Below are positions 1,605 to 56,343 of a DNA stretch of 64,000 nucleotides, in pieces. The translations under genes and the position numbers were made by a program. The notes beneath the pieces were generated by a model, which saw only the letters and a program-made list of their open reading frames with translations, was not told the origin of the DNA and ran no database searches. The stretch's first letter is position 1. Each line of letters starts with the position of its first letter. Source of the stretch: Podarcis vaucheri (Eukaryota); the NCBI GenBank assembly GCA_965113315.1, contig OZ220366.1. One strand, 5' to 3'.

Positions 1605-2003
1605 ATTATTTATTTATTACATTTATTTCCCACATTCCCTCCAAGGAGCTCAAGGTGGCATACATCTCTATCCTCCTCCCCTGTGAGGAAGGTGAGGCTG
1701 AGAGTGAGTGACTGGCCCAAAGCTACCCAGTGAGCTTCATGGCTAAGTGGGGATTGAACCCTGATCTCCCAGCACTGGTCTCTCAGGGTCTAGTCCACCA
1801 CAACTAGGGGTTCTCTTTTGGTGCAGCTACATCTCCACCCGGAGGGGATTTTTGCATTTCATAGGAAATGTCTGGGGTTTGGGGGGCTATTTATTTATTT
1901 ATAACTGTGCCCCGGAAATGGAAGCCATCACTTTGCCCGAGGCCTGCATGCTACCATTTTTACGTCTTGAAACATGGCAACCCTAACCACTACAGCACAC
2001 TGG
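1605..2003 (-). mobile_element. Old tRNA-derived (MIR/CORE-like) SINE, interrupted by a probable hAT-like insert at about 1805-1985
   Basis: TTAT-rich tail at left, core gtgactggcccaa...gagcttcatggc, B-box-like ggattgaaccc. Head resumes as taaccactacagcacactggc after an insert ending tggcaacccta. Confidence 0.55.
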
Positions 2004-4641: not shown

Positions 4642-6400
4642 TATGCATTAGGCAGTCTGCCATATCTGAAATATTTTCCCCAGTCCAATAGGAAGTTAAT
4701 AAAAATCTTCATATTTTCATCTTAACTTGCTCAAAAAATGTCAAATGGAAAAACACCAACAATATATTAAAATCAACTCCCCCCCCCATTTGACCTTCAT
4801 TACAAACATTTGGGTAAAACCACTGTTCTACAATTTTAACTTCTTTAACAGAGAAGCAGTTGTATAATCTCTAGAAGACGTAGGCAAATTGTGTCACTTA
4901 TACCTTCCACTAAGACATGTATAAATATATACTATAAAGTAATAGCATTCCATCCACATATATTGCCAACAAAAAGGCAATTTTGGAAGCATGGATTCAA
5001 AGCTGCATTAATATTGTGGCCCATAATGTTTCATCTGTTCTTATACTGAAATAGCTTGAAATGAAAAAAACAAGGCTGCAGCTGAACAGAGTGTAATATT
5101 CATCAAGTTGATCTTCAGGTCCTTTTATTCTGAACTAAAATTGGAAGGCTAGCTACAACTGCCATTAAGAATCTGTGGCAGGAACAGTGGGACAGTAATC
5201 CCTTTTGCAGATTCTATTTTAATTTAAATCCTGGTGTGTTAAATAGCACCATAGTTCTTAATAAGAGGGGATCAGAAACTGTATTTGTCAGGCTCCATAC
5301 TGGGTATATTACTACTTCCATTCTTTGCTTGTTCTTGAGAAACAAGAATTTGGGCTTTGCACTGAGTGCTAAGCCCCTTAAATCGCTGAACACTTTCCCT
5401 GAATTGTTGGATTTTAAGCCTTGAATACTTCAGATCCTATCAAGTTAAAATTTCCTTTCAATTTCACTCCTCCTCAAAGGCCCACAGCACTGATTTTATT
5501 TTAACTACTTATATTATCTTCCTGTGTTATCTGAACTATTTTATATTTTTCTAAAGTCACCTAGGATAGTATCACAGTCCTCAGAAAGTAATGGAAATGG
5601 CATTCTGTGTGCTTTAACTGGCAATCTGTAGGGATATTTACAAGTGCAGCAGTTCGGAGATTCTCATAAAATGCTGCCTTTTGCTTGATAAACAGTGTCA
5701 TCACTCAAGTATGGTACATGTCTGTATTATCCACACTTACAGAACTGAAGTAGCCATGGGTAGTAATTCAAACTAACAAGGCAATTTCCAGCTCTGCCCA
5801 AGTGACAGGATTGTAACCTCAGTGTCATGGGCAAACCCAGTCAGAAAATTTATATTCAGTGTTTCACAGAAATGGTCCACAATGTAGGTTCCCCCCCCCC
5901 CTTACCTTTAAACCTGATCCCTTCAGGCTATTAACTGTCCCCTAATATGATCCATTTGATGTTTAAAGGGACACTTTCCAGCTTCCTCTGCTACTATTTT
6001 TACTGAGGTGAAAGGCTTCAAAGATATTTCATGAATAAAACTATAGCTGGGGCTAGATCTATATTTTTGCCAGGAAGTCAAAGGTTTGCCAAAGTGCTCC
6101 TGTAATTTTGCATATTCATGTCTGATTTGAAGGTAGCAGAGCCATTCTAAAATGTTTCCAAGATCAAGATAAATCTGTCCCTTAGTTTATGGAGAATGTG
6201 CTAAGAAAGCTGGAGGGCTCATGTGGTGTTTCTTTCCCCTCATTGCTTATTTTTGGGAATAAATATACAAAAGGAATTCAGACAAAAGTCCAATATCTAG
6301 TTATCCAAAGCACACTATTGCCATTACTACTGTTGCACACCACCCCAATATTGCACCCCAGTGCAAAATTTCATGGGTTCCACACATACCTAGGCTCTGT

Positions 6401-17763: not shown

Positions 17764-17768
17764 ATTAG

Positions 17769-18739
17769 TCAGTTTAAAGCCCTCCTGATGAGGTTTCTGA
17801 GATTTTTGGCAAAAACATTTCTCCCAACCGTTGTGAGGTGCAGCCCATCACTTGCCAGAAGTCCATCTTCAAGAAACTGCAGTCCGTGATCTAAGAATCC
17901 AAACCGTTCCTGTTTACACCATTTGCGAAGCCAGCTGTTCACTTCCACTATTTTCCCCTCTCTCCCTGGGCCACGTCGTTCAACTGGGAGGACAGATGAG
18001 ATGACAATTTGTGCATTTAGTTGCTTCAATTTCCTGCCGAGAGCCTCGTAGTCTCTTTTGATCTTCTGGAGGCTATTGCTTGCAGTGTCATTGGTTCCCA
18101 CATGAACCAAGAGGAAGGGGTATTTGTCAGTGGGTTTTATGATTCCTTGCAGTCGTTCAGTTACATCTTGGATCTTAGCCCCGGGGAGACAGCACACTTC
18201 CCGAGACATCTTGTCAGGCCCACAGATCACTGCTTCTGTTCCCCTCAGTAGGGAATCCCCTATCACCACTACACGCCTCCTCTTGGGTTTGGTCGGGGTT
18301 CTTCCGTGAGCTGTCCGTTCCAAGGTCGCCTGCACATTCCCTGAGGACTGACTTTGCTGCTCGTCTTCATATACCTGATCGACTGTAATGAGGGAGAGAT
18401 CCTCAAATGGAGTCTGCTCTTCGTCTTCCATGCTAGGGGAGAGGACCTCAAAGCGATTGTGTATTTCTAAGCAATCAGAGTGAACCCTGGGCCTCCTACT
18501 TCTTTGAGTCACGTTTCTCCATATATCTGGCTCCTGTGTTGGTGAACTAGACTCCTTCTCAGGGGAGTGCCCTGTCTCCTCCTTGGTGGAGACGGTGTGC
18601 TCTGTTGCTTCCAAGAAGAGCTCCAGCTCTCTAATTCTTTGGAGCGTAGCTACACGTTCCTCCAGTTGCTGGACTTTGTCTTTTAAGAGGGCAATCAACA
18701 TGCAATTGCTGCAGGTAAAGCTGCCTGCAACCTTTGGCA
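17769..18739 (-). CDS. CR1 ORF1p, N-terminally truncated: CxxC, coiled coil and SGNH/GDSL esterase domain
   Basis: FTCSNC followed by the heptad [19 protein letters not shown] blocks GDSLL, PGA, HVGTND, DGLHL. Ends RRALN-stop. Confidence 0.9.
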
Positions 18740-20119
18740 ATGCTATCCTTCTGCTTATATAGTCCTGCTCCAGCTCTTGACTATGCTGGAACATAGCTAT
18801 GCCACACCACATATCTATATATAATGTTCTATACACAGGATCTGGAGATTCTAATTGTTCCTTCTCAAAGTCTGGCAATGCACTCTGAGAAAGAATGGAA
18901 GTTCTTCCCAGACTGGTTATAGTCTAATTTTTTCTCATTAAGAAACTAGCAATGACACTGAAATTTAGTGCACTGAAATTCAGTAATATGGAACAAACAA
19001 ATAGCAAATGTATGAATTGCTCTTGCATCCTTACAAACTGAGTTGAGCCCAAACTCTAATGGTGGTCAGATCTTGATAAGAATCAGTTCACCAGGATCTT
19101 CATAGGTCACTGTTCACCCCAACAACCCCTTTCCCTGGTAACAGCAAAAGAAGAGAACACATTAGAGCTATTTCTGTGATGGCTCCATCCCTTCTATCTT
19201 ATCTCTGGTGAGTTGAATGTCGCGACAGCAGAGGCCAGGCATAAGGAGTTGAGGGACACATGATTTTCAGGCTAACTGACATCCGCTATAAGCACTTGAA
19301 TAACCTAATTCCTAGAATCTCTGCCAGCAGCATTCTCCTTGCAGCATTCTCACAAAGCACTCACAAAGAAGCCTCCAGCGGGACTTTCTCATTGCTGCCA
19401 CCAGGAATGTTTTAGACAAAGAGAAGGTTTTAGCAGGATAAGTTTCAGGGTCTTGTGGAAGGAGTTGCTTATAACTCACCATGCTGCCAATTATGGAACT
19501 AAGAGCAGAAAGAAGTTATTTTTTCAATGGGTGTGTGTGGAAACCACCCATTATTGTATAAGAAATAAGTTCTACAGTACTAGCAGAACTCATTCCATCT
19601 GATGGCCTGCAATCTCACAGCTTTCACCTAGGATTGAGATATTTGCTCAAGAATAATAGTAAATGACTAGGTTGCTCACATCAAGGTGTTGAGGGATCCT
19701 CCAAAGATGCCAGTACCTTTCCTCCTTCTTCCTAGGACACAATTATATTTATCTGTACTGATGGGAGCAATACTGCTAAAAGATCTATGTACAAGCAATG
19801 GCAGCCTGAGGAATTTTGCTGCCTGAAACAGAACCCAAATGATACTCTCCACAGCCTTAGGGCTAATGCTCCTGCCTATTCCTGATGATGCTGATGCCTG
19901 AAAGGCCTGTTCATGAAAGGGCTGGCCCTGTGTTCAAGCAGTTTAGTGTTTACCTGCACTGCAGCAAATACTGTCTTTTTAACATGGTAACACACTAGCA
20001 GGGTGATTCATGACATTCATTGACATCAGAGCAGAACTAAGGCTCATAGCATTAAAATGCTCTCACAGCTGGCTCTTGCTGGCTCAACATCTTTGCTTCC
20101 CAGTACTGCCTGAAACAGC

Positions 20120-35736: not shown

Positions 35737-38625
35737 AAAGTGGTAGGGACAAACGATTATGTCACAAGTAGGAAGGCTTGAGAAATTTGAGTTTTGTGAA
35801 TGCCACTTCAGTCTGACCTAATCTGCACTGACCCTTCCACACTGGAATGAATTTATCATTCTGATTTCGCAATACTCTCAGATTTTCAATGCAGTTCCTG
35901 GCTCAAAAAAAATCTACCAGCAGAATGCATTACAAATGCATTTGGTCAAATGTATTTAGAAATACATACACTGAGATACATATCTGGATATGTATTTTGT
36001 GACAAAATACTTATTGCAGTATATATTTTAAAATGTGTCTTGATATGGACTGATCTGTCTGTCTCGTTAATTGTACCTAAATTTATTTGTGAGGAAGGGA
36101 GAACATGGCATCAGTCGGACAGCAGCCTCATGTGTGTGTTTTTTGAGCAGTGCAGAGGTGAGGTGGGCCCTCAGCAGTACTTGGCGAAATCCATGCTGGG
36201 CTTAGGCTGCAGACTACATGAAAGTAGAGCTCAGATGTTGCTTCATCAACAGTCATCCTCAGCCTGAGCCTTAAATAGGAGCTGCCTGTGCATGTCAGCT
36301 GCTAGCTCTGCTTTTGGTGAGAGGATTCTCTTCATTTAATGGGCCCACAGGATATTATGATTTCACCAGGAACTTTGGCTGGAGAGGTACTGCCACAATG
36401 AGTTCCTCTTGCAGAAGTGCTTCTTGTTGGTTTTGCACATCTGTGGCTGGGCCTGAGGGCTTGTTCCTCTCCCATTCCTCTTACTCCCTATACTACTTCA
36501 TCATTTGATGGTGTGTACAGGTTCTAACCAGTACTGGTTTGTCATTCTGCATTTTTGAAAGTATGCTGTTTTAGAACATAGCCCAATATAAAAGTCCCCC
36601 CCCCCGTACCAGTGCTCATTTAGTAGTATTCATGGAAGAGGATTTTTATTTTATTTTAAAAAAGCTAATTTTGGAATTTCTTTTTTTTAAAAAAAATGCA
36701 TTGAGTGCTCATTAAAACAACAGATTAAATCACTTCTCTTCGAGACAGATGTAAAAGACAGGTGCTGTATAATCTGACACAAGCTCTGTAAATATATGTT
36801 TGTTTTGATCATCAGTGCCACTCGCGATCTCAGTTCTAGGATTCTATGGAAGGGAAATTGCTAATTGCACCAAAACTTTGCAGTAATTTGTAGCACCCAT
36901 ATTTGTGTAATGGGTTAGACCAGCTTTTCTTTCGTGCTTCAACACATCACTTAAACTGAAGGCTGTAAGGGGAACTGTAGGTCAAGATAACAATGGGGAC
37001 AGGAAAAGGCACTGGACAATGGAAGGCGGAAAAAAGGTAGGAAATGTCGAAGCACTTGTAAAGGAGACACAGTTTAAAGTACTGGTAGTCACCTGAGTTT
37101 CTTCAGCTAAAAATGTGAGTAGCACACTGAAAGAAGGCCTGGCTGAAATGAAGGATAAAGAGGGAGGCTTTTCACAGTTCACAGGTGTGCAGACAGGAGC
37201 AGGAGAATAGCGGCAAACCCAGCCCTTGACCTCTGCACATTCAGCTGAAAGTTATGAGCCCATATGCATATAGCTCTCTATATGTGTAAAGTTTTCTCCA
37301 TGCTGTCATTTCAGGATTGCATGATAGTATGGGGAATTGTGCATGCATAGGCTCTGCACCAGGATGTGCTATCCTGCCCACTCTCTATAGGCATTCATAT
37401 ATTTTCTTAAAAGGACTAAAGGAACCCATATTATGAGACTGAGGGAGAGGCCTTCCTCCTTTTGGAAGTTAGAGGATGCTTCCTGCACTTGCTAAAGTGC
37501 AAATATTCCATATATCCCAGGCTCGAGGTGGACAGGAGGAGCTGACCTTGCTTGCACAAGCCATTTCTTTTATCTGCTATGCTCATTTTTAACATTTATC
37601 TGGGGGCAAGAGCTGTGAAACTCAGACTGTGACTCTGTACACACTTATCTGAGGAGTAAGCCCATGGAAAACGGCACTTGCTTTTGAGCAGTCATGTACA
37701 AGCTTGCACTGTAAGGGTGCTATTTCATTTTCCTACTTTTGTAAATTAAATGAAAATCATATGGGCCAGAACTCAGATCTGATTTTTGAAATGGTAATGG
37801 CTGTGCTTCATTTTTTTGTAGCTCATTAACAGCATTCAGAAGCAACTCGTTGGGGTGACTAAAAGGTGTTCCTGCTGTCATTTGTGAAAATGCCCCAAGG
37901 ATATTTTACTGGAACATTTTAGAATGATAGGATTGCTAATAATTATTAACAATGCATTAGGTGAAGATGAAGCCTGCAATGCTATACACGTATCCTTAAG
38001 ATTAAGTATCAGTGATTTACTACTAAGTAAATGTGCATAAGACTGAGCTGCAAACTTTGTTTTGTCAGCTCACCTCAACATATGATGGGAATGATGATGG
38101 TGGTGGTGTCTGTGCAAGATGGAAGAAATGTAGACCCAATAAAACAGAAAGTTTTGGAAGGTTGCTCATTTGTTTCCATCTGTCTTCATACTTTCTTGTC
38201 GTTCTGGTGCTGTCTTCTTGTGACTTCATGCTTTCATACAAACACACACACACACATTTCTTTTATTGCTGCTTGATAACTGGAAAGTAGCAGTGTACAC
38301 AGTCAGCCCTCCTGGAGGCAAAGCTTCCTACCAGTTATTGACATGATGCCTGTGTTCACATGATGCTTCTGATTCAATATAAACACTGAACTATGGGGGA
38401 ATTAAAACTATCCTGGTGAGATAATTCCAAAAGAAGGAAAAGTGGCAGGTAATATTTTGGACACTTACTGGGTTGAAAACTCACCACCCACCACCTCAAC
38501 TAAGAAATAGATTACACATGACAAGGATAAAATAAAATACATAATACATGGAGGCAACTTGGTGATCTTAAAAAACTTGGTTGTTCCAAACCATTTTTGA
38601 CCAGCAGATTTCTTATGCTGTTGTG

Positions 38626-39247
38626 TGTCGAGGTCCCCCAAGCAACCCTTAAATAATTCACAATTCACACATAATTTTTGCTTAAGGTTTTTGGCATAAT
38701 TTTGGCCACAACTTTTTTAAAATACATAAATGTGAGTGGTTGCTTAGGCATTGGTTATGACTATCTGTTTCCACGCCCAGGGACAGAACTGACTTCCGGA
38801 TTCCAGCAAAAGCCAGTAAGGGAAAACAATATTGGGGAGAGCATGGAGCCGGGCACCAGACCCTCACCCCCCTGCAGGCTCCCGGGGGCTTGCATGGCCA
38901 TAAACCCTATTCAGGGGTACGGACAAAAGAATGGCAAGCCCCTGGATTCCTTTAATGGATTTCCCTTGCAGCAGCAGCATTGGAGGGGCAGGCACCGCCA
39001 ATCCTTACCCCTCCACCAACCAATTTTTTAACCAATGCCTAACCACAACCTTACAAGTTGTGACAATTTGCTACGCAGTAGGCAAAAACCAAATGGCACC
39101 AGCCAGTCAGCCAAATGGACAAAATTCCTATCAGGCCTCTGCCCCAAAAGCAGATGACCACATGACAGGTATAGCAAGGTCAACGCAATAGCCCTAGATT
39201 AGGGAGAGTGGGCGGTTGATCCGATGCACGCAGCAAAAGAGCCCAGT
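38626..39247 (-). mobile_element. LTR-like structured repeat, copy 1 (promoter end truncated)
   Basis: Collinear shared blocks with copies 2 and 3: taggcattgg, atggcc, cggacaa, gattccttta, aagttgtgac, gtagg, aaaattccta, tgacc. Superfamily unresolved (solo LTR or DIRS/Ngaro terminal repeat). Confidence 0.7.
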
Positions 39248-40965
39248 CAGTGATGCTGCTCGTGCATGCGCAGAAGTGCTAAATCACGCTTCGCATGTGC
39301 ACAGAAGTGTAAACCACTCCGCGCACATGTGCAGACGTGGCACTTTGCCATGTGCCCTTTTTAAAAAACAGAATTCTATCTTGAGGCTTGCAAATGTTCA
39401 AAAAATAATATTTCACAAAATACTTTTCCAGTGTAGAAACAATGCAGTTGGCAACAGTTGGAACAGAGCTACACAGCATGCAGTATAGTGCACAAACACC
39501 TCATCAATGCATGTGGAATTCTGTGCCATGTGTGATTCTGTGATGTTTTATTTCTAAAGGATTTTTTTCTATCAGAACAGAGCCATAAAGCATCATATTT
39601 CTGACCATTGTAAAAAACAGAAGAGGCTTTCAGCTAAATCATTGCTTTTCTCCTGAACAAAATGTCCTAAGCTTCATCCTCTCACAATTTTTGTTACCAG
39701 GATGAAATATTGGCATTTAAATGCTTCATTTGTTCTGTGAACTGCACTAGTAACATGTACTATTTTGACCTTTTCAGAATTTTGTAGTTTAATTGGATGG
39801 CTGTTTTTCACTCATCATCCTCTTAACAACCTCTCTGATGTCCAAGTGGGGAGGTAGCGCTTGACAAATCAAGGTGAACATTATTGAAATGAATACAACA
39901 TAATAAAATATAGATTTCCCACCCACCCTCAATACACCCTCGATTTTTATATTACTAAAGCCCAACCCATTTCTTTATCATTGCCAAATTTACAGTGTAA
40001 GCCTTACATTGCACCCCTTCCGTCCCCACCCCCATGAGCTTGTGGAAAGCAGCTGCAGGGAGGAGAGGGGGAGGGGTTTGAAGAATAAGAATAGGATCTA
40101 TTATGGCAGTTCTCTTAGATGGTGCTATTTGTTGCTGCCGAAATGAGGTAAGAAGACAGCTGTTTATGCAAATAAAATGTCTCGCAAATCCACATGAGAA
40201 GGTGTGCACAATACTTATAAGAAAAGAAATGTTCCCTCATGACCATGCTGCGTCTGTTTCTTGAATAAATCCCACACCCTCCTAAATTCCTATCTGCCAA
40301 CTTGTCTTAATGAATATGGAACTCTCTGAAAAGCCACGGCATAATGAATAAAAAGGCTAAACTTTGCTTTTACTTTGGAAAGAATGCATGACTAATCTAT
40401 ACTAGATCTAGAGCTCTGGTTACTTCAAAGGGCAGGCATTTTTGCTCACAGTAGTAGTGAGTTTGCAGTCTCTCGAAAGTCACAAATGTAATTGGGAGGG
40501 ATAAACTGCCCGGGTTTGAAAAACCTAGGAAGACAAAGCGCAAATCTGAAAATATTTTAAATTAAAAATGTAAGCTTTGCCAGGCAGAGAAGAAACAGCG
40601 GCCCTCCAGAGCTTGTTGGACTGAGACTCCCATCATCCCTGACCATTGGGGATGCTGGCTGAGGATGCTGAGCATCCCAATTGTCAGCGCCATGCTTTCT
40701 CCATCTTATTTGTAGAGATTGGTTGTGTGAACCATGCTAATTTAAAAGTGTTGTCTTTTTACTTTGGCTTCCTTTTCCACTTTGTTTCTCCTTTTTTAAA
40801 ATAAATAAATAAATATCTATTTTATCTGGATATTGTGTGAATGTGTGTTACTGTATTGCGCAAAGTTTCTGGAGCAGAAATTCAGTTTTAATATACTGCA
40901 TAATGCACTAATAGGGCACAGAAATTCCATGTGAATAAAATTGTTGTTTATTCATTATTATTGGA

Positions 40966-41742
40966 TTGCACCCCAAGGCCCCACAAGCCCTTTTCCAGTA
41001 AAATAACTTCAAACGGACGCATAATTTTAGTTTAAGTTTTTCGGCAAAATTTGGCTACAGCTTTATTGATTACAAAACAAATTGTGCGGTATTGGCCTAG
41101 GCATTGGTCAGAGACTATAACTGACTCCAGCCTCTCTGGCTGGCAGTCTGAAAGGGTAAACACCAAACAAGGGAGCAACATCGGTGAAGATCAATGGAAG
41201 CTCACCCTGGGGTTCCTGTGGTCCTGGCATGGCCCTAGTCCCTCAAGCGGACTTCGGACAAGATCCAGGACCCCCAGATTCCTTTACCGGAATACCCTAT
41301 TTCTAGAGGGACAGGTGATGGCCACACCTCCCCTCCCGCACATTTCTATAAACCACCAAACCTTACAAAGTTGTGACGATTGCTAAGGGGGTAGGCGAAA
41401 ACCAAGTGGCTAAGCCAATCTGCCAAATGGAAAAATTCCTACCCAGCCCCTGCTCCAAAGCAGGTGACCCAATCCAAAGCAAGACCAAAGCAGCAGCATC
41501 TAAAATACGGAGGGAGGACGGGTGTTTGGCAGCGCAAAGCAAGTGCCCCTACCCCTGTCACGCTGCCGCATTTATAGGTTCCTGGGATCACGCCCACTCG
41601 CCACAATTGGCCCAAACAGCCAAGCGCGATCCCAGGGCCCAACAGACAAGGCTTGGGCCACTCCTAGCAACAACACACCCTGGGGGGGGGGCTTAAGGGT
41701 CCCGAGTGCAACCAGGACCCTCGATTTAGGAGGATCCCATTT
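40966..41742 (-). mobile_element. LTR-like structured repeat, copy 2 (CCAAT, TATA and AATAAA intact)
   Basis: Same blocks. Minus-strand CCAAT 41606-41610, TATAAA 41571-41576, AATAAA 41062-41067. Right end gaggatcc.attt shared with copy 3. No clear TSD. Confidence 0.75.
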
Positions 41743-42382
41743 GTTGTTTCTTATGATTAACTGGTGAGATTGCATTTAAAAATTATTGTGCAGTGATGAA
41801 AAAGGAAGGGGGTGTCAATATGGCCCACATTTCTCTTAGCAATTTGGACCGCCATATACAAAGTTTGTCATTTTGTGCTTATATAGTTGATATGTGATAG
41901 CTTTTTAACTAATACTGAACTGTTTTTGTTCAACTTAACTGTATATATTTGCCTGGCTAATATATTTGCCTAGACTAATATCTATCTTGCATACAAATTA
42001 TAAGACCTTATAATTAGAAAGAACCTAGATGGACCTGTGGTCTGACTTTGTATAAACCAGCTTCCTACATTCCTAAATATCATTGGATTGACCCCTAGTT
42101 TAAATTAAGAGTGCTTAGAATTTGATTTTGGCTTGCAAACTGGATGTTATAATGTTGCTAGTCCCCACCAACCTTTGAAATTTAGTAACTGTTGTGTAGA
42201 TGTTTAAAAAAATACCAGAGAAGTGTGCAAAGAGTTTCTTGAAATTATATTTGTGGCCAGAAAGGTTTGGGGTTCATTTCACTGAAATTCTCCTGGGGCA
42301 GGAGGTTATCCAACAGTCTCCCGGGAGAAGGGCTCTCCATTAGTAATGACAGTAGCACATGGGCTCTTTATTCAAAAAGATT

Positions 42383-42438
42383 TTGTTGTTGGTGTTGTTG
42401 TTGTGAATGCAAACAGCAGCAGCAGCAGCAACAACAAC
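42383..42438. repeat. Compound (TGT)n / (CAG)n(CAA)n microsatellite in fold-back arrangement
   Basis: ttgttgttggtgttgttgttgt-gaatgcaa-acagcagcagcagcagcaacaacaac. Confidence 0.85.
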
Positions 42439-45400
42439 TGTGTTTTTCTACTTGCGTTCTCCACAGTGGACCTAGTGTTGGCTCTGGAGGTAAATAATGG
42501 CTGCCAATGCCATTAACAAATGGTGGAGAATGAACAGTGAAAAATCTTCAAAATTTCTCGTTCCAGGAAAATGAGAACTCTTAGATATTTTATCTGAAAA
42601 AATTCCATTTGAAGAAAAAGGATGCGGGACTAGATGGTCTTCAGCAGGGCTTTTTAAATGTTAAACACCTTTGCAACATTCCCCCATGTACACACCTTTA
42701 TAAACTGAAGATTCCTGAACTTCATTAGCTTCATCATCAGAACCAGAGTTTTTGCATTGCATGTGTAATGGGAAGACTACGAAAGTTCACAATCCTGAAA
42801 AAATCATCAGTCAGTTTAGCAGTCGGTGCATTGCACCTGAAGAGGGTTCATCTGGTTACTTAAACCTTTTAGACTGTGAACTCTGAAGGTTAGTCTAACA
42901 TAGCCTTGCATACTAATAAGGGCATGAAGATGCTTAATGAATAAAAATGCTAACACCAGCCAAACTGGTAGATTTTCTTTTAAATTGCTGGTAAAGTGGG
43001 AGATTAAAGGGATGTTTATGGCAAAAAGTTAAAAAGATAGCATATTGGATGAGTGTTATATGTATACACAGGGCATGATTATCTTCTTCTAGCTCTTAAA
43101 ATGGTGTTTAGAGAGTAAGGAATTTTGCCTGGTCTCTGGGGACCTTGGGTTTTCCTGCCTTGTGATGGTGGATAAATGCTATGCAACAGGTTTGTGAATA
43201 AATCATACCTTTTGAGACAAGTGAATGGCCTAAACACCAGCTGTTATGCATCTCAAGGTAAACCTTAAAAGGAGACTACACCACACATTTTAAAAAGGAA
43301 GAGATAGTAACAACTTGACTCTGGATTTGCAACTGAAAGCTCAGTTTCTGGGACACCTTTGATGTATTTTCTTTTAAATTATTAGCGTTCATGGTGGGTA
43401 CACATCCAAAAGCAGCGGGGAAGCAGAGGCTCACATCGTTAAGTTTGATACTACCCTAGTGCATGTGAGGAAAGGATCAGAGCAGATTTGCATTTTTAAA
43501 ATTTATTTAGTAAATTTAAATCAGCAGCAGAATAAAATTATACAGGTCCAAATCTGCAAACAAACTGAACAGGAGGAACTGGATTTAAACCTAGTGAGAT
43601 GTATTGAGTCCGGATGAATCAGCACAGGCAATGGTTTGTGCTCTTGAAGCTAATGTGTCATGTTAGGAAACCTAGCCACATCTATGTTGCCCTTTTTTGC
43701 TTGCCTTTGGGAAGCCCTAGCCCTGGTGCACTATTTGACTTACCATCCCAAAACATTGCTGCGCTGTTTAGTGGCATGGAGCTGGGACCAGAGCTGTGCT
43801 CTGGAGCTAAATAAAAGTATAACCATATATTGAAGGCAGCCCTCTGGTATGGCTCAAAAGGACAACTTGAAACAAACAATGATTTAATTCATTTGGAGTT
43901 TTTAACTGAGCTCATTCCTTTGTAGTATTTATTTCCAATGTAAAGGATTAACACATGGTAGTAAGACAGCCAATAATTGGATTCAAAAACCAATTAAATT
44001 TAAGCCAGAGAACTTGCAAAGCATAGGAACAAGCCCTGGGTCTTAAAGGTGGCTCAACTGGTGGTGGTAGGGAGTCTGGGGTGGGCCTTGCAGATTTCAT
44101 GATGAGCCCCCACCTTTTTTCATATAGCGTGAGCATTATAATGGATTTAATCCATTAACCAGAAATAATATTAGCTAGTAACTTGCTTTACTTAAAGCTG
44201 CTAGCAATATTGTTTTCATAAGGTGTTTGTAGTATGGTATGTGTCCTTTTGATGTCTTGCATTTTGCTGGGATGTGACCGCACATACCAAAAATAATTGC
44301 CTTCAACACATAGGTATACTTTTATTTTCTAAAGCAAACTCTTACTGTCTGGTGCTGCACCAGCACTCAGAACAAATAAAACTGTAAACTGTAACTAAGG
44401 TGGAAGAAGAAAATTGGAAAAAAAACACCCCAAACAAATAAAACTGTAAAAAGCCAAGGTAAGCCAACAATATTTTGAGAGTACAGGTGAGCACAGGAAA
44501 CCACAAACATAGAATTTTATACTCTTTTCAAATCCCCCATGTAAGCCTTGTTTATACTGTGATGCCTATAACATGCTTCTCCAGAGATGGTACTGAGTAG
44601 TTCTCAAACATTACCAGTTACAGACTCTCACATTATTTTAGGAGGTCCTCCTGGAAGGCAAGACAACAAAAGCTTGTCATTTAGCCTTACTTCTAATTTG
44701 GTCCTAGTCAGCAGCTGAACTTATATTAGAAAGGGCAGACAACTTGTATACTAAGCCAAGCGGTGAACAGCTGAGCAATATCCTGCAAAACATTCAAGTC
44801 TGTTTATCCTAGAAAATATATACTGGAATGCTGCCAGTATTGCCATATATGCCAGGCAATATATAGCTGCCATTTACAATAAAATTAAATTCAGTGGGAT
44901 CTTACTTTCTACATGTAAGTACAGCACAGGAACCTGATGTTTTTGTTGCAATGCAGTAGGTAGAGGGTTAAAACTCCACACCTCACACAGGTGCTCTCAA
45001 TGAACACAATCCCACACATTTGTAAACAAATAAAGGGGGGAAAGTCATGATTTGCAGGTGATGCCATGTCACAGGTAGTTAGGCCCTTAGCATGTAAATT
45101 TTAGGCTGTAGGTTCAAAGACTCTTACTGAGAAATAGTGTGACTTACTTCTGACTAAAACATTTAGGATTGTGCAGCACATTACCCAATGATAATATACC
45201 ACAGCAAGTTTTCTCGTTGAATCAAACCAATAATGCATGGGAACACTTGCCCCACAGTTTTGTGAGATCTTGAAGGTGTGTTTCCACACTGATCTAGAGA
45301 AAAATAACAATTACTTAGCAATGTCAGAGGTCATGTCTGCCTTTTTGGATGAATGTGGACATTTCTCTAAAGCAGATGGAGAAATGGAATAGCATATTAT

Positions 45401-46706
45401 GGCTAAGTATGACAAAAGCAGCCTTAATGGCTTAACAATGGGTTCAGTTGCAGGTGAAAGATGCATTTTTAAAGAGATGACATATTTTCCCTCCCTTTGA
45501 TCACTGAAGCCAAACTAAAGAGAGAGAATGAGAAAGGAAAAGCATTCTGAGTGTGGAACAGATGATCTAATCACACACAACAACTGTCTCTTTTTAATGG
45601 GAAGCAGAAGCTGTTGGTGTTGTTTAGTATAAGGTCCATGAAGTTCCATTCCTTAATCATTGTCACCAAGAAATCCTGAACATGTCTCTATACATGTACA
45701 CTATAGGTCACCGGATAGCTATAGTTATCACACAATTTTCAAAAATTGAATGAAGTGGAGTTATATTATCACCTGATAACTTGTAATTTATATATTCATT
45801 TCCTCAAATTATTAAAAATAGTTTTAAAAATCATGACCTGATTTGTTAGCATTAAGTCTTTTTTGAATCCAACGTGATAGATTTTCATTTTCTTTTTTTT
45901 TTTAAAAAAAAAACCAACTAAATTTCTCCCACGCATATGTTATAATGATGTTTCTTTGCACAACATAAAGCTTGGCCAGTAGGTTATTGTAGCACTTAAC
46001 CACAAATGAACTACCATTGTCCTGGAAACAAACTCCTATTTTCCCCCTCCTTCTAAGGAGAACAAATTTATTTCCACACAAAGTCCAGATCAGGGATTCC
46101 ATTTACAGCACCTCTAACTGGATCCAGTCTCAAATCTGGTGTGGTGGGAAAACATTTCTCCAACCTCTGGTTAAAGGCTTTCCTTGTTGTTTATGCCTTC
46201 TCTTTATTCACGTACTTCTGTTGTTGCAAATGAGCTGTCATGTACCTGGGAAAAAGTTTCTCTCATCTAATTATCAGAGACAAACCATAAGTTATACACG
46301 AATGAAGCCCCAGTGAAAAGCAGCTTTGGGATACTACGATTTTGAACAAAAAAGTGGCAAAAGGGAATGTTTGATCTTTTCTTCAGTAGCTGTGAGTGGC
46401 TCTGAGCTGTTGTCTAGTCATGTGCTTGGAGTTGTGTTGAATGAAAGCAATTTGAAATGGGGAAATGGCCAGCAAAGAAAAGGTTAAGCCTCCCCAATAT
46501 TTGGGGTGTAGGAACATTTTACATAACATGTTTCACACTCTCAGTGATTTGATAATCATAGGTTCTATCATCACTTTATTTGAAAAAATGCACATACCGG
46601 TACCCAACCAGGGTCACTTTAGAAGCATAATTATTTATTAGAATATCTTTTTTTACTTCTTGGATACTACTCCAAGGATAACATCTCACTTTGCTTTCAA
46701 CACTTA

Positions 46707-46790
46707 CGCCTGAAGAAAAACCTGTAAACAGAAAAGCTTGGTTGCAACATATTGAACGACTAGCTGGATCAATGAAAGGATAGCTTTCCT
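46707..46790 (+). mobile_element. Possible degraded Penelope pLTR with decayed hammerhead core
   Basis: cctgaagaa...ctgt-aa-acag-aaaagctt follows the CUGAAGAA-stem-GAAAGCU order seen at 4407-4444. Confidence 0.3.
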
Positions 46791-47503
46791 GCTCTTACTG
46801 TCTCCTCCTGAAGAAACAAGACTACCAACATTGTTCTGGGGCATGTTTTCAGTGAAAATGTGTAATGTTTCTTACAGTGTTTACTACATTTCTTCCTAGC
46901 ATTGAATTCAAGCTGAAATGGCTATGAAATGGCAGCAATATCAGGACCTCAGCTTTTATCATAATAATTTTCTTAGTCGTTCAGAAATTCCCCCAAAGGC
47001 CTGAAATGAGAGAATCTGTCCATTTGCAGTCTCTGTCACTTTCCCATGCTCCTGCTGACAATTCTATTTTGTTCTGTTTCTGTATTCAACAACTTCAAAA
47101 CTATATATATATATATATATAAAGGTAAAATCTCAGAATTGAATTTAACAGAGCAATTCAAACTTGGCTCCAGCCTGCTAGGGTGGAAGGGGGGCTGGCA
47201 GTATTTCTCTGCTTTTTTATTTTTTCCTTTTTTTCTGTACCAACTCCAGGGTGGCACAGCAGGGGAGCCCAGATCAGGCCCACAGAGAGATGGATTCAGC
47301 AGATCCTTTGGACTCGGCAGATCCTGCCCCAGCTTTATAACACTCAGTTCTGGGGCCTAATGGCAGCTAAAACCAGCAGAAATTCTTCCAGGAGTAGTGT
47401 GCACTCTACCACACTTTTGGCGGGTGCAGTAGAGCCTTCCCTGCTCCCCCCTCCCCTGGTGGAGGGATATTGTGGTTATTCATATTGTGCTTTTGGGAGT
47501 AAT

Positions 47504-48139
47504 AGGCAAATAGAAGGGGAAGAAATGGAGGCAGTGAGAGATTTTACTTTCTTGGGCTCTAGGATCACTGCAGATGGTGACAGCAGCCACCAAATTAAAA
47601 GATGCCTGCTTCTTGGGAGAAAAGCAATGACAAACCTAGACAGCATATTAAAAAGCAGAGACATCACCTTGCCTACAAAGGTCCATATAGTCAAAGCTAT
47701 GGTTTTCCCAGTAGTGATGTATGGAAGTGAGAGCTGGACCATAAAGAAGGCTGATCACCGAAGAATTGATGCTTTTGAATTTTGGTACTAGAGGAGACTC
47801 TTGAGAGTCCTATGGACTGCAAGAAGATCAAGCCTATCCATTCTGAAGGAAATCAGCCCTGAGTGCTCACTGGAAGGACAGATCCTGAAGCTGAGGCTCC
47901 AATACTTTGGTTACCTCATGAGAAGAGAAGACTCCCTGGAAAAGACCCTGATGTTGGGAAAGATGGAGGGCACAAGGAGAAGGAGACAGCAGAGGATGAG
48001 ATCGTTGGACAGTGTTCTTGAAGCTACGAAAATGAGTTGGACCAAGCTGCGGGAGGCAGTGGAAGACAGGAGTGCCTGGTGTGCTCTGGTCCATGGGGAC
48101 ACGAAGAGTTGGACACGACTAAACGACTAAACAATAACA
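47504..48139 (+). mobile_element. BovB-type RTE LINE, 5'-truncated 3' end
   Basis: FTFLGS, VFPVVMYGSESWT, IDAFE, LQYFG.LMRR, SLEKTLMLGK in one frame with a single TAG (47789-47791). Tail gactaaacgactaaacaa. Confidence 0.93.
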
Positions 48140-48774
48140 GTATGAATAAAAACTTAATATTCTTGGAATAAAAATTGTCCTGACAAAAAAATTGTCCTGT
48201 CAAACAGCTCTTCTGTCAAAACGTTATTCCTAATGTTTAGTTAGAATTCCCTACTCTATGGTACTTTAGCTCAAGTTTGTATTTCTCTGCTGAATTATTT
48301 TTTTATATACGCTCTCCATATATTATCTGCCAATAATTCCATTGCCACATTCAGGGAAGTATGCAATCTGGTGGGTTGCCAAATTACAATCCACACATTG
48401 GTCCCCAGACATGTAGATCAAGTCGTAGCTATCAAATTCCTCAAACATCCCAAATCCAATTTACACTTTCATTGTCTTGTTTTGTTGGATCTTAAAATAC
48501 TGATGGTTTTAATAAGTGGTAAGATAGTTAAAGGGTTTTGAACAGAGAGGAAATGTCAGTGTTTCTTCAAAAGGGTAGCACTATTGCCCAACAAATTTGC
48601 ATTTACCGGTGTTGATTACATTTGTATTCTTCAGGAGCAAGTGTGCTGTTATAATAAACCTTCTGTTGTTTATTTCAGCTAAGCTGCAGAATAGTAGAGC
48701 GCAACTTGGTAGACGAATCAGTGCGATTCCTATACTGAAACTTAGATCTATTTTTTAAAAATTCTAACTGCATT

Positions 48775-48777
<3 letters not shown>

Positions 48778-48808
<31 letters not shown>
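48778..48808. repeat. (CA)n microsatellite
   Basis: About 15 perfect CA units. Confidence 0.95.
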
Positions 48809-48809
<1 letters not shown>

Positions 48810-50201
48810 CCTAAATGCATATTAACCGAACCCATTAACTACCTGAGCACTCTTGTAGTTCAAATGCAATTTCTAATCCTACCTAATTCACCTGATCTGT
48901 GAGCTTAGTTCTTATATTCCACTCTGTCACTATTTCTACAGATCTCTTTTGGTACCCAACTCTAATTTTTACCACACTGAATTAGCTCACTTTTCTACTC
49001 ACCTGTGCCAAATTTAAGGTGTGCAGCATTCTTTTTTTAAAAAAAATAAAATTATCCTTTTTGCTAGCAAATTTATGAATTCTCTCCTTGCCTCTCTCTC
49101 TGTGCCCTTGATGTAGTTCTCTATATATTCTAGCACTTGTCCATTTCTCTCCCCCCCTTTTTTTTCTTTTTGTAAATCTACCAAAGAATAATATAAAATA
49201 AAATCTGGATTAAGGGCGGTTTTTTTCAGGATGGTTGAGGGCATGTGTGCTGCATCCTATTGGTGTCATGGTGGTAGCACTCATTCTGCATCTGATGATG
49301 CTCTGCAGGGGGAGACACTAAAAAGGGGGGAGGGTTAAGAAGGGTCAGTTGGGGGGAGTGAGAAATGTCCCTATTTTCAACTGAAGAATGTTTGATGATA
49401 TGCCATGAGACACAGTTCACTTTGACACAGTCTCCCAACTTCATATTACCAAGAAATAATAAATATGTGTGACCTATTTTATTTTATTTTATTTTTGAAG
49501 GTCGGGTTCCAGCTGTATCATACCCAGTCAGCTCTTAGCAGCTTTCAGTCCAGACACAGCAGGAACAGAAGCAGCAGGCAATGCCTGGAGCAGTAAAGGA
49601 GTGACTGGGAGAAAGACTTTTTCTTCTGCTGCTGGTATGGCTTTTACACTATCAAGCTGATATGGCAGTGCTGACCATTTTAGGTATGCCAAACTCAAAA
49701 ATTCTTGTAGCTTTTACTAAATAAAGCTCAACAACTCTGGGGTTTGCCTAAAAACGGCTCAACAACTTTCAGGGTGTCCTGGGTGTCCTGTTTCTTACTT
49801 TTCAAAAAATGGCAACCGTAACAATTCCCAAGCATTTATCACATTTTGTATTCTTACAAATATTCCCCTAAAGGCATGAGATACTGTATTGTGGGAAAGT
49901 ATATAATGTGTGTTTGATAGAGTTAAACTGGATTTTTAAAGAGTTTTCCTAGAGCAGAAGGGACATGGGGTGCTGAAATTCAGAGGAAGGGTAAATAGAG
50001 GGGGGAGAGAGAAAGAGAGAGATGGAGCAGCAGAATAAATTGTAGGATTTTTTGCAGGGCGGGTGGTTTTCGAGAAAGGCAGCAGTAGCACTTTTTCTTC
50101 CAGAGCTACATAGGCCTCAGGCATCAAACTTGGGGTGATATGGTTGGTGAATTGGGGGGGCATTTGTTTACCTCTGTGAAGTATAAGAAGTTGAGCAAGC
50201 T

Positions 50202-51040
50202 GAGATGGGGAGAAATTTGATTCAGTTCACATTTAAGAACAGATTGATCAAACTCACACTTACGGAAACAATGTGTGAGAGAAAATAGAATCATTCTTCA
50301 AATTTTGCATTTATCCAAATGTTGTGATGCAGCTCTCCAACCAACCGGTGTTTACAAAAATGCATGCAGTCAACTTGCATCATACAAAGGGTTTCAGTTC
50401 CGAGGGTTATGTGTATGCACAAAAATCACATAAAGCCAAAATTACCTTTGGAGCACCCCTGGAGCTAAGCAGCCCACTTCCTATGAGAGGGAGGATCAGA
50501 GATTGAAGGAAGCTAGAAGCCCCAAGCAGCTCTGGTAATATGGTGGCTCTGAGAGTGCATCCCCACCACTCCCAGAGCCACAGGGACTCCACTCGCAAGG
50601 TGCACCAAGCAGGAATTGCTCGGGAAGAAAGGCTGATAACTTTAATAGCTTCCTATTCTTGCACTGAGTTCACTTGGGGTTTCCAACTATCACTTCTGAT
50701 CCTTCCCCTCACGGGCCTGCCTCCAACCACATATGGATGAAATAATATATGTTAAATGTGTGTAAGATGTGGGTTTACTGTATATTAGAGAAAAGGGTGC
50801 GTTAAAAAAATAAAACATTAGTGAAAATAACATACAAAAGTGTGTTATGAAAAATTGCTTGCAGAATTGTGCACATTAGTCAGACTTGCCTACAAAAATG
50901 TGCTTATTGGGAGAATTCTGTACTAAAATGCTGTTGAATTGTCTTTATTTAAAAGTTACAAATTGCTGCAGAAATGTGGAGAACTGAATTTAAGATGGGG
51001 AAAATGAGAAACGGCCAACATCTCCAGATCCTTCCATCCA
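50202..51040. mobile_element. AT-rich non-autonomous DNA-transposon-like element (host of a nested MITE)
   Basis: Termini gagatgggg / ttccatcc. A related antisense end ttcttccccatctcta lies near 57250-57265, with a similar start near 35750. Confidence 0.45.
50367..50780. mobile_element. Old Tigger-like MITE nested in the 50202-51040 element
   Basis: TIRs cagtcaacttgcatcatac versus reverse complement cagtaaacccacatcttac (14/19 match), TA on the right, internal inverted repeats. Confidence 0.55.
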
Positions 51041-51086
51041 CAGGAGAAGGTTGTACTTCGAAGGTGTAATGCACTGTAGCTTAGCC

Positions 51087-51222
51087 CAGGCTTCCTCAAC
51101 CTCAGCCCTCCAGATATTTTGAGACTACAGTTCCCATCATCCCTGACCACTGGTCCTGCTAGCTAGGGATCATGGGAGTTGTAGGCCAAAAACATCTGGA
51201 GGGCTGAGGTTGAGGAAGCCTG
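51087..51222. mobile_element. Young palindromic hAT MITE
   Basis: Perfect 29-bp TIRs and perfect 8-bp TSD GCTTAGCC (51079-51086, 51223-51230). Degraded relatives near 13460, 14680, 40600, 51425 and 61900. Confidence 0.95.
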
Positions 51223-52779
51223 GCTTAGCCAGCCAGGAACAAGAAGAATTATTCTGGCACATGTCTGCCAGGTAGAAGCCATCATTTCACAACCCTCAGA
51301 GATATGATCTGTGTAGAGTGCCTTTTGGGAGGCGGGAAATACCAACTTCCCATCTGAACAGCTTTTTCTGGCTGGGGAAAATAGAAAGCAACTGTCATCA
51401 CCAGGTTACATCTATCCATCTAAGCCAGTGATGGGTTGCCTGTGGTCCTCCATATGCTATGCAATTACAACTCTCACTATTTCCGGTTTTGGCTAGTCTG
51501 CCTGGGGGCAACTTATGGAATGTAAAGGTTTCTCCATCTCAATTTGATTATTTATCTCCTCAAAAATCAACCTTAATCTTTCAGAGTACCAAACTTACCA
51601 TGCTGTTTCTACAAGTTGTTAAAACAAAGCCCTTTTATCAAACATTTATGCTTCCCAAAAATATATACTTACTAATACAAAGGCAAGGTTGTACGCATGT
51701 ATTATTTTTTATTCCACTTACTGTGAGAAATGTAGCACCATGTTTATTTACAGCATCCATTTTCTTTCCAGTTTTTTTAAAAAAAACTTTATGTTTATTT
51801 CAAAGGGTTCCACTCAAACAGGATATGCAGAGTCCAGTAATAGGATTATTTTTCCTATCAGGTTTATATTAGATTTTCACAGTATGGAGATTTCTACCCT
51901 GCATCATTTTCCTACTGTTAATTTAGTGCAAGTTCATGTTTAAAATTTGCATTGGTAGGCAAGGAAAGGATTGACTCTGATCTGCTACTGCTACCCTAAG
52001 GTGTAAGATAATGCTGTACTCTAGACAAGGGAAATAGCAAGCCCAAAATATATTTCTCAGAACGATATATTTGCTTTCAACTTTCTGAAAACAGGATTTG
52101 AGGAAGATCTACCTTAAGGGCTAAAGTTCTGTCTGCAGATGCCATATTTGATCTCTTGGATTTACTCTTCCTACCTGAAAAAGTTATCAATTATTTCAGA
52201 TGGGAAATTGGCAGAAAAGAGCACAGCACAATTTTGGCAATTGTAGCAGAGGCAATGGGGTCAATTTAATTCACCATTTACATAGCTAAGGTGTCCAGAG
52301 CTATGTGTATTCTGCACTTCCATAATCACCTCATGCAAGCAAGGATCTCCATGTGCAGAAATCAGTATATAACCTCCCCCACCTAGCACTGATTGAAAAG
52401 GGGGAGAATCTCCTCCACTTCCCAAATGGCTGCAAATATATTTTCTGAGAATGCTTTTTTAAAAAAGTTTGTTGTTATATTTTTCTCCCAACTTTCAAGG
52501 AGCTCAGATTGGAGTATATGCCTCCCCCCCCATTTTATCCTCACAACCACCATATTAGATAGATTAATTAGGCTGATAGCTAGCAACAGGCCCAAGTTCA
52601 TCCAAATAGGTCAATGGCCAGAACTGCCCAGTCCTAGCCTAACTACTATACAACACCAATTCGAATACCATACTGACAATGCCAGTAGCTTGTGAAATCT
52701 GAAAGGCACGTGGGTGGCTGAGCATAATTTATAGTGGCCAAGGAGCTAGAACTGAAGGGAGGTGTATGCGTGGCTTTCA

Positions 52780-53420
52780 TTGTACCTGATCCAAAAGTTG
52801 CAAATAGTACAGAATGCAGTGGCCAGACTGCTGACAGGAACAGATTACCGGCAACATGTTTCTCTTCTGCCGAGAGAGCTGCACTGGTTGCTGATTTTCT
52901 GCTTACCCAAGTTCAAGGTTCTTGAGTTAATTCAGAAAGCCCTTAACAAATTGGGCTCAACGTTCCTTGAAGACTACCTGATACCTTATAGTCCACCTTG
53001 TTCACCGATAAGGCCCTTTTGATGGTTTCCATGTGTCTGAGGTTCAGTTGCCCATCACTAGAAGCCAAGTCATTAGCATGGCAGGCCCTGCCTTGTGGAA
53101 ACCATCTCTATAGAAGTTCAGCAGGAACCATCCTTACCTTCTTTCAGGTGGCTTCTGAAAGCTGTATTCTAGTGGTACTTCTACTTACGAATGCAATCCG
53201 TTTTGGGGTGCCGTTTGCACCCCAAAAAGCCCGAAAGTAAAGCGCCGTTACTGCGTGTGCACGAAGCACCATAGAGCACTTCTGCGCATATGCGAAGCAC
53301 ACAGATTGTTTCTGTGCATGCACAAAGCATGCAGATTGCCACATACGTAACCCAAAAAACCGCAACGCGAAGCAAACGTAACACAAGGTATGACTGTATT
53401 TAGAAAGGCCTTCACAATAC
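52780..53420 (+). mobile_element. Older L2 3' fragment, split by a MITE
   Basis: KLQIVQNAVARLLTG, LHWL, FKVL.LI.KAL. The 3' UTR-like ttagaaaggccttc resumes after the insert. Confidence 0.75.
53170..53396. mobile_element. Tigger-like MITE inside L2
   Basis: Termini agtggtact / ggtatgactg followed by TA. CpG-rich interior with ttctgcgcat repeats. Confidence 0.7.
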
Positions 53421-55496
53421 AGATATTCTTCTTTTCAACCAAACAGTATCTAGTGATATTTTATGGATATTTATAGACTGATTTTATTGTATATAGTATG
53501 TATGCATGTATTTAAATTACATGCAACCCTTCATTATGTTTACAACATAAAAAGCTTTTTTGTGTTCTAAGTTGTCTTGAGATATTTTGTGAAAGTGCAG
53601 ATTATAAACAGTTAAGTAAATAAATAAATCCGGCTTCCCTGCTCAACAGATTCCCTTTTTTTACCCCCCTCCCAAAAAAACCCCTGTGCATGAACCCTAC
53701 TGACCTCTCTTTCTCAATGGTCCCCCCCCCTGAAATTTCAGGGAGTTTTGGGTATTTTGTAACATGGATAGTGAAAGAATGAAGGGCACTGAAACTATTC
53801 TGACGAAAATCTCTAACACTTTCTAGGTGACTAAAAGATTTTGCAATCTAATTTTGCCCCATTGTTAAAGTTAATTAAGGTCTCAGCCACGAAGCAATTC
53901 CCCAGGTTTTGCAGCAGTGAAACATTTTTCCTCTGGACCAACAATCTGTATAGCCAAGAGTAAGTTGATTAGTCTTGCTTTGTAATAGGGGTTAGCACCT
54001 TATCCTTTTATATTTTTGAAACTGTTTTCACTCAAGGGATGTGGTGCACTGACTGCTAGCGTGGACCCTCTGAAATGAACAGCGACTCCAGGAACAATTC
54101 ATCATGGTGGATCATACCCAGTCTCTGCATTTCTTTAGGCTGCACTGGCAAAAATCCCAGCAGTGTCTGCCCCCCCCCAACTATCTCTCCCCCCTTTTGC
54201 AAGCTTGCTAGGCACTCTAATCCTATTATTGCAAAAATAGATAGACATTTTTCCAAACAGCAGGTGCAAGAAAATAAACTGGCCAGGAGCAGGGAATAGC
54301 TTTTGCAACAATATATTGCTTTAACCAGTGCTTCACCTCTCTAAATCTCTGAACATAAATCTTTCCAACTAAGTATATGAAAAATAGCTTCATAAAATAG
54401 CTTTAAAATAACAGCAAAACTCTGTCGCAAGGAATCCTATGGCATAATTAATATTTTCATAAGTTTTATTTCCAGAACTTTGAGGGGTGCCTCTTCCATT
54501 CTCCAACATAAATTCCTTCATTAAAATGGTAAATCTCTTACAGTGAACAAATCCCTCATTTGAGTGAAAAATCTTGGGGCAGCATAGGTTATTTTAATGG
54601 GTGATACATTTTAAATCTAGTCTTCACAGCCTGTTGTATCTGCTTCTCAATAGGTGTGGGGGTGTAGGATGAATAGGGAAGATGAAAATGATGTACGTGC
54701 ATGTGTGTTTATTCAATCAAGTATGTGTTACGTTTTCATTCTGAGTTGGAATCTGAGGAAGGAGGGATAACATTCAACACACCATTAAATACCCCCTTTT
54801 ACATTCCTTTTAAAACCTTCTGATAAGGGAAGAGTGAGTTTCTATGACGCTGGATGCTGAGCTATTCATTTTAATGGCACATGGATTAAATACCCTTGGT
54901 GCTACTGTTCATGACATGTTCCAAGTATATACAGGGCAGGAAGCTCTGTATGTATATGTAACAGGGGAAGTGGGGAAATATGCTTCAGAGCCTCTTGAAT
55001 ACGCCTCAATTTTCTCTCCAGGCAAAATGTCTTAAGTGTAATAGGATAGATTTACTTCATATCCTCGAATTCTTTTGACTGGAAGGAATTCAGTACGTAA
55101 CAATTGTGGAGTTAGCACCTGCATACAAAGTGGCACACAGTTGCTCTCCCCACGCAACTCCTTTCAAAGGCTAGAGCATCAGTGCTAGTTTAGGCCTGAT
55201 TCAAACTATTGTTTTAGAATGCTCCGTATCACATCTGCTGTGTTTTCGCAAGGCCCAAATTAGTTCTGGATTAGGTGAATGTGAGGCTACGCCAGATCTA
55301 ATTTTGTGCCATGTGTTTTCAATAAACATGAGAGCAACTTGTAGCAAAATAAACACTGGACAGCAGGACTGGATTAACTACCAGGCCAAATATTGTATAG
55401 AGCAAGTCCCAAGTTCAACTGCCCTGTAATGTTATTAGGAATCCTCTTGAATTTTTCCTCATCTGTCTCTCTTCTAAGATTCTGCAGTTTTGAATT

Positions 55497-56343
55497 ACCT
55501 GCCCCTATTCAAATACCCAAACCACGGCACTCCCCGCTTTGCTTTTGTGCTTCAAGAACTGCAACCACCCCCAAAAATGAAGACACAGTGACACAGGGTT
55601 TTTAGTTTAAGTTATTGGGCAAAATTTAGCTCACAACTTTAATGAATACAGAATGTGAGTGGTATTGGCTTAGGCATTGGTATCATCCAAACTATATCAG
55701 ACTCCCATCCACATCACGGGGAATCTGATAAAAGGGTGAATCACCACCAGAGGGAGCCCCGCCGATGCGGACCAACTCAAGCTCACCCCCGGTGCCCCTG
55801 TGGGGTCCTGGTATGGCCCTAGCCCCTACTGCTGGGTTTCGGACAAGACCCAGGTCAACCCCTGATTCCTTTAATGAAATACCCTTGAGCTTGGAGTGAC
55901 AGGTGATGGCCGCATCTCACCTCCCCACACATTGCTGATCCAATGCCTAACAGCAAATCTTACAAAGTTGTGACAATTGCTGTGCAGTAGGTGAAAAGCA
56001 AATGGCTCTGCCAATCTGCCAGATGGAAAAATTCCTACCAGGCCCCCATTGCAAAACAGGTGACCAACAACATCCATAGCAAGGCTAACACACCAGATAA
56101 AAGGGGCGGGCGGGCGGGCAGGTGATCCGCTGCGCAAAGGCAAAGAAGTCCAGCAAATTTCGCACAGGGATTAAATAATGTTTCGTGGCCACCCTCCAAG
56201 CCAAGCCATTGACTTTAGGGAACAAGGGACCATGAAACAACCAACCAGAGTGGAGCAGGGCATAGCCCTGCCCACACCAGGAGGTGGGAGATGCCTGGGG
56301 GCCCGAGCACAACGCGTACCCTCCTTGAAGAGGATCCGATTTT
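55497..56343 (-). mobile_element. LTR-like structured repeat, copy 3
   Basis: Same collinear blocks, minus-strand ATTAAA at 55638-55643, right end gaggatccgattt. No clear TSD. Confidence 0.75.

Follow-up and report, generated by a model that had tools for sequence, protein, structure and literature searches.

A predicted wobble helix in the terminal repeat of Ngaro retrotransposons of the lizard Podarcis vaucheri, a candidate protein docking site

What is the hairpin that recurs three times within 64 kb of the Podarcis vaucheri genome, with the same letters at its centre and different stems around them? The window analysed here is a stretch of 64,000 nucleotides of contig OZ220366.1 (assembly GCA_965113315.1). 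An initial annotation had described three copies of ATGGCC..CGGACAA in it, and all three could be found by a pattern search of the 64-kb window, at 38894–38926, 41229–41261 and 55813–55846, where 0.01 would be expected. The closing stems quoted for them are present as given. A covariance model of the hairpin, built partly from these copies, matched only the same three sites in the window, all on the minus strand. On that strand the hairpin arms of copies 2 and 3 were placed by motif search and covariance model at 41212–41281 and 55796–55869, respectively, and that of copy 1 lies at 38877–38949. The copy 2 arm consists of a lower stem, a pyrimidine-rich internal loop, a core helix and an apical stem.

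Solo end units of Ngaro retrotransposons

The three sites fall in one common repeat of about 770–800 bp, of which the genome holds thousands of copies. The exact motif gave 455 matches in the 1.6-Gb genome vs 81 for a reversed control, and among the matches listed for it many belong to unrelated repeats. Two other motifs of the family gave 5413 and 4653 matches vs 0 for the control. In 29 of 30 loci the repeat was located downstream of a tyrosine recombinase (YR), on the strand of the recombinase. Intact elements with the order A1–gag–RT–YR–SGNH–B1–A2–spacer–B2 are also present. Among the 20 longer recombinase loci, B1 and B2 are 98.8–100% identical in 12, and A1 equals A2 in 5.

The open reading frames (ORFs) of one intact element comprise an unmatched ORF1, a reverse transcriptase (RT; RVT_1, 2e-13) and the YR (Phage_integrase, 8e-7). 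The SGNH ORF that follows the YR in this element has a weak match to Lipase_GDSL_2 (E 0.0023, below the cut-off), and no match to the methyltransferase family was found in its ORFs. Inspection of ORF1 (Gag) by eye revealed C-terminal CCCH and CCHC-like fingers. Protein relatives come from Podarcis, Lacerta and Zootoca, and the lacertid relatives are named SGNH / PF13472. The flank duplication of solo units is ≤3 nt in 22 of the 24 scored (out of 30), as seen for Ngaro elements, which make no target-site duplication. Other hallmarks of this group are found as well, namely split direct repeats with identical pairs, RT and YR ORFs, and the SGNH ORF after the YR with no methyltransferase match.

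All three window copies prove to be solo end units (A–spacer C–B) of Ngaro retrotransposons of lacertids. The hairpin, for which the initial annotation had named no host element, forms one arm of their terminal repeat B. The sense strand of the element is the minus strand of the window. In copy 2, the B repeat spans 40966–41358 (5′ boundary approximate; AATAAA at 41062–41067), spacer C, which lies between the A and B repeats, spans 41360–41525 (upper boundary approximate), and the A repeat, identified by repeat comparison and carrying a terminal hairpin, spans 41526–41740, all on the minus strand. The A repeat contains a CCAAT-like word (41606–41610) and a TATA-like word (41571–41576), also on the minus strand, which may serve as promoter elements. 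The B closing helix of copy 2 lacks its 5′ strand. The copy 1 solo unit (38621–39260, minus strand, end approximate) consists of B (38621–39044, 80% identical to the B of an intact element), spacer C (39048–39215) and an apparently truncated A, and the copy 3 unit was placed by repeat comparison at 55545–56340 (minus strand, ends approximate). All three solo units (38621–56340) share one orientation, and the poly(A) hexamers are altered in copies 1 and 3. The window also contains, at 14841–18923 on the minus strand, what by eye is a CR1-like LINE of nearly full length, whose long open frames include an SGNH-like ORF1.

Eight of the 20 long recombinase loci (L271, L274, L275, L276, L278, L285, L287, L288) stop exactly after B1 and thus have the structure A1-ORFs-B. 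Such loci are the reciprocal of the solo A-C-B unit, and both could originate by recombination between repeats or by the recombinase acting between the two B|A junctions of a circle. For three lineages of about 1800–3800 candidate copies each (L033–L062, L329–L388), no match to Ngaro ORF4, YR or RT was found within 1.5 kb of the 30 best copies of each; here the solo units may greatly outnumber their parents or spread alone. No intact element was seen in the 60 loci of divergent lineages examined.

Several other identities were considered and rejected. The ends superficially fit a non-autonomous Helentron / Helitron2 element (short asymmetric inverted repeats, a terminal hairpin, a T-rich target), but the partner encodes RT and YR. 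The sole Rep match for a Helentron partner is an old fragment which, by eye, is interrupted by a solo unit, and the PIF1 matches are three close exon-like matches at one locus. A retroviral or other LTR origin was rejected since TG..CA ends, a target duplication, a direct LTR pair and an integrase were all lacking. Two near-identical copies 8.9 kb apart, considered as a solo LTR pair, are inverted and have no retroelement ORFs between them. Two observations were made at individual loci. The partial copies of L002 and L003 (L031) are 97% identical and inverted relative to each other at a distance of 8.9 kb; one of them has the A side only and the other the B side only. In L188 (about 550–2050), a divergent-lineage solo unit lies within an old fragment of a Helitron Rep gene and is not flanked by a duplication.

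The Rfam scan that had been proposed gave no match at the gathering threshold and nothing credible at E up to 10, in agreement with the earlier statement that the motif fits no named family. A loose pattern found 120 loci in viral contigs, none of them similar by BLAST, and the metagenome contigs yielded neither a YR relative nor the B pattern. The copies analysed at the DNA level thus all come from this genome.

Predicted fold and conservation of the core

The initial annotation had read the shared letters as an internal loop. With RNAalifold, the sense-strand core instead pairs as G-C, U·G, C-G, C-G, and the predicted structure is therefore a helix of four pairs, one of them a U·G wobble, together with an unpaired C. 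It looks open on the plus strand because the U·G reads as A·C there. In copy 2 the motif, the predicted fold and the model columns together place the 5′ strand, GUCC, at 41256–41259 and the 3′ strand, GGGCC with its final C predicted unpaired, at 41231–41235, both on the minus strand; in copy 1 a U replaces the first G of the 3′ strand.

The pairing was evaluated in 35 cluster representatives, selected to fold stably on both strands, with 3 mis-anchored clusters of 38 left out. The U·G register had a mean pair probability of 0.65 and exceeded 0.5 in 25 of the 35; an alternative register with a U×C mismatch is disfavoured at 0.08. On the other strand the core paired with a mean probability of 0.25, and the sense strand folded more stably in 30/35 representatives. 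The earlier minus-strand reading holds. As the invariant core of the anchored set cannot covary, the case for the U·G pair is a thermodynamic one. Pairing also makes it unlikely that GGCC acts as a kissing palindrome.

The stems around the core change in a compensatory way in part of the family. The pair below the core alternates between U-A and C-G and is broken in 10/39. In the lineage group of copy 1 (24 sequences), two-sided changes were seen in 8 of 19 flanking-stem pairs, and the same sequences gave 37 cells against 15.9 when shuffled, well above slid controls, by shuffles that ignore relatedness. The lower stem was more stable with its own arms than with swapped arms (−16.8 vs −13.0 kcal/mol; 0/10000 permutations), and the apical stem behaved similarly (8/10000), although the own arm was the best partner in only 5/35 representatives. 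When column covariation was tested across all lineages together, it did not reach significance (44 and 68 of 500 shuffles); the lower stem shifts register, and one alignment that was out of register (A6) was left out of the covariation counts. The co-varying stems of the initial annotation thus stand for one lineage group and in the arm-swap test, but not for the columns of the family as a whole.

The letters of the core are far less fixed than the three window copies implied. We took 94 anchors by means of an unrelated family motif and counted the 69 with a complete B, the 25 truncated or interrupted ones being dropped. In this sample, chosen independently of the motif, 2 of 69 copies carry all 13 letters unchanged; in the subfamily of copy 2 itself 5 of 30 do, a loss that is largely CpG decay. 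The invariance first reported for ATGGCC / CGGACAA is a small-sample effect. The sense-strand GUCC..GGCC is kept in 42/69 copies (16/21 clusters), and 19 copies in two lineage groups (7 and 12) have a different arm in which the core is replaced or flipped; in the flipped lineage an A-U pair replaces the wobble in 2/9 copies.

Other blocks are kept as well or better: a hexaloop hairpin in 52/69 copies, GGCAUUGG in 60/69 and the poly(A) signal with GUUGUGGCC in 63/69. The hexaloop hairpin (GUUAAA-type loop) lies immediately 5′ of the arm, in copy 2 at 41278–41293 on the minus strand, and is retained even where lineages replaced the core. No partner was found by eye for this hairpin or its equivalents.

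Searching 76 loci with a covariance model of the arm gave 53 distinct matches, in which the core columns hold G 52, U 53, C 53 / G 52, G 50, C 52, C 53 with varying neighbours, a comparison that is partly circular as the model was made from overlapping copies. The core might still be an ordinary helix with no special role, its letters fixed by shared ancestry and G+C richness. The non-significant covariation across the family is consistent with this, as is the finding that 19% of the aligned columns are equally conserved at the 0.9 level. The same can be said of the solo copies (n=30), where the core had decayed at 6 of 210 non-CpG sites vs 422 of 9564 G/C sites elsewhere (p=0.39, low power), with no excess of conservation. 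We nevertheless consider this decidedly improbable, as the seven core columns are kept in 50–53 of 53 matches while the adjacent stems change and compensate, in lineages that differ by up to about 30% overall. The kept columns beside compensating stems bear out the earlier suggestion of a selected structure with a sequence-specific core. Given that the core decays no more slowly in them, nothing points to a host function of the solo copies, and the constraint likely acted on the active lineages during transposition instead.

RNA is favoured over DNA as the acting form. The ratio of G·U over A·C exceeds that of shuffles only in young copies (9.5:1, 8 elements), and in old copies it equals the shuffles (15.9:7.8 and 34:18, respectively). 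That the structure acts in single-stranded cDNA, of whichever strand, to form circles or to load the recombinase is very improbable. It would agree with the single-stranded DIRS-1 cDNA reported in the available text of PMC7192593, with the shuffle-like ratio of the old copies and with GNRA/UUCG loops that are not enriched on the sense strand (3/34 vs 4/44). However, the first-strand cDNA is the antisense strand, where the core pairs poorly, and young copies favour G·U on the sense strand.

A docking site for an element protein and its rivals

Among the functions first proposed, packaging or protein binding is plausible and fits a core that is fixed within lineage groups. We tentatively favour, at somewhat under an even chance, that the wobble helix of the B arm is a docking site for an element protein, either the Gag zinc fingers or RT, in packaging or at the start of copying. 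The short helix, opened by bulges on both sides, would be gripped by Gag or RT, which we infer to be the binding partner. This explanation is preferred because the helix stays constant inside a lineage group but is rearranged from one group to another, and whole lineages changing or flipping the core would be expected of a site that evolves with the element protein. The identity of B1 and B2 ends at a sharp 5′ border, and is kept up to it even though lineages differ by up to about 30%, which suggests a shared template. Both repeats would then be copied from one template in each cycle, with the folded B2 as the handling site.

The suggestion of a nuclear export element of CTE/RTE type, by which a host factor would carry the unspliced element RNA, found no support. 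In outline, a helix between internal loops near the 3′ end of an RNA does resemble what is generally known of such elements. Against it, two young elements had no Rfam match even with E up to 10 and the core is replaced or flipped in the 19 copies above, and we regard this function as improbable. A catalytic core fared no better. Short words recall the twister and pistol cores as generally known, and the conserved wobble is flanked by bulges. A self-cleaving ribozyme is nonetheless highly improbable, since no Rfam ribozyme matched, the hammerhead word CUGAnGA is absent from both strands in 6/6 young C+B2 regions, the positions adjoining the core vary widely and no conserved pseudoknot partner was seen by eye. 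The hairpin represents neither a new host RNA nor a new ribozyme.

The core pairs are also predicted to recur near the poly(A) signal. Of 52 folded copies, 36 have a predicted module GUC:GGC(C), made up of G-C, U·G, C-G and then C, in the arm. It is also predicted in 49 of 52 copies, with its 5′ half fixed by sampling, in a long-range helix that joins spacer C to the bases directly following AAUAAA. In copy 2 the spacer C part of this predicted pairing is GUCACAAC at about 41370–41377 on the minus strand. In the most divergent lineage group, the module is predicted with its strands swapped in 7/7 tested copies. The module arises somewhere in 400 nt in 15/63 shuffles, and given this rate the flipped module alone is only suggestive. 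G-C and U·G, but not the full module, are retained in the other divergent lineage. The C:B helix is predicted only in the context of B2 (4/8 elements at B2, 0/8 at B1), and the predicted accessibility of AAUAAA is mixed across the 8 elements.

In several loci (L277 at about 5945–5965, L272, L279, L281), non-repeated sequence before B1 pairs with the 3′ part of B, with compensatory changes between lineages. In two lineages this sequence covers the first half of AAUAAA.

Alternatively, the core might be a tertiary contact or a site for a host 3′-end factor, which would help to choose between the two identical poly(A) signals, so that the one in B1 is read through and the one in B2 is used, or protect the finished RNA end. 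The same module beside AAUAAA in the C:B helix, the restriction of this helix to B2 and the masking of AAUAAA at B1 all point this way. The arm itself is identical in B1 and B2, one abundant lineage is without the full module in the arm (0/4) and the accessibility predictions do not agree, and we take this role to be possible but unlikely.

Returning to the docking site, a more specific and still less likely version is that GUC:GGC(C) is a repeated recognition module of the arm and the poly(A) side. Gag or RT might then grip the folded 3′ end of the RNA, with tRNA-free priming at the C|B2 border.

Relation to known elements and significance

Bulged stem-loops serve as cis signals in several reverse-transcribing elements, such as the hepadnavirus epsilon, the retroviral psi and the 3′ stem-loops of LINEs. 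The arm, known here by prediction, shares with these generally known signals a lower stem, a pyrimidine-rich bulge, a short upper helix and a place in a terminal repeat that is present twice. It differs from them in having no sequence or Rfam match and a variable apical loop.

Ngaro-like YR retrotransposons with an SGNH ORF have been described before, e.g., Xenopus DIRS-53_XT (10.1101/2021.08.05.455354). As far as the available text of that study goes, the lizard element resembles this type in its split direct repeats, A1 / B1-A2-B2 with identical pairs, and in having gag, RT/RH, YR and a fourth SGNH ORF with no methyltransferase match. Its B repeat is longer (370–440 bp vs 152 bp in DIRS-53_XT), and unlike DIRS-53_XT it has a unique spacer of ~165 bp between A2 and B2 and thousands of solo units; an RNA structure is predicted for it, and none is described for the DIRS-53_XT type in the same text. 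The solo unit also resembles SIRE of Trypanosoma cruzi VIPER, a split-direct-repeat YR element, in that A2, a unique internal piece and B2 are dispersed together, as described in the part of PMC6681497 available. SIRE/VIPER belongs to another superfamily and host, and the lizard unit measures about 770–800 bp with its 165-bp spacer. Neither the class of element nor the kind of solo unit is new, and the wobble module is the addition. Among the papers listed by a literature search, none dealt with Ngaro RNA structure or with this motif.

Priming of reverse transcription in DIRS-type/YR retrotransposons is stated as unknown in the available text of PMC7192593. Were the module reading true, a cis signal for priming or packaging would for the first time be defined in a split-direct-repeat YR retrotransposon, and the solo A-C-B units might be recognised in trans. 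The thousands of copies in many lineages amount to a natural mutagenesis of the RNA end, which leaves a small number of short blocks, the wobble helix among them, as candidate signals. The wobble helix thereby offers a modest handle on the copying of this little-studied class of YR retrotransposons.
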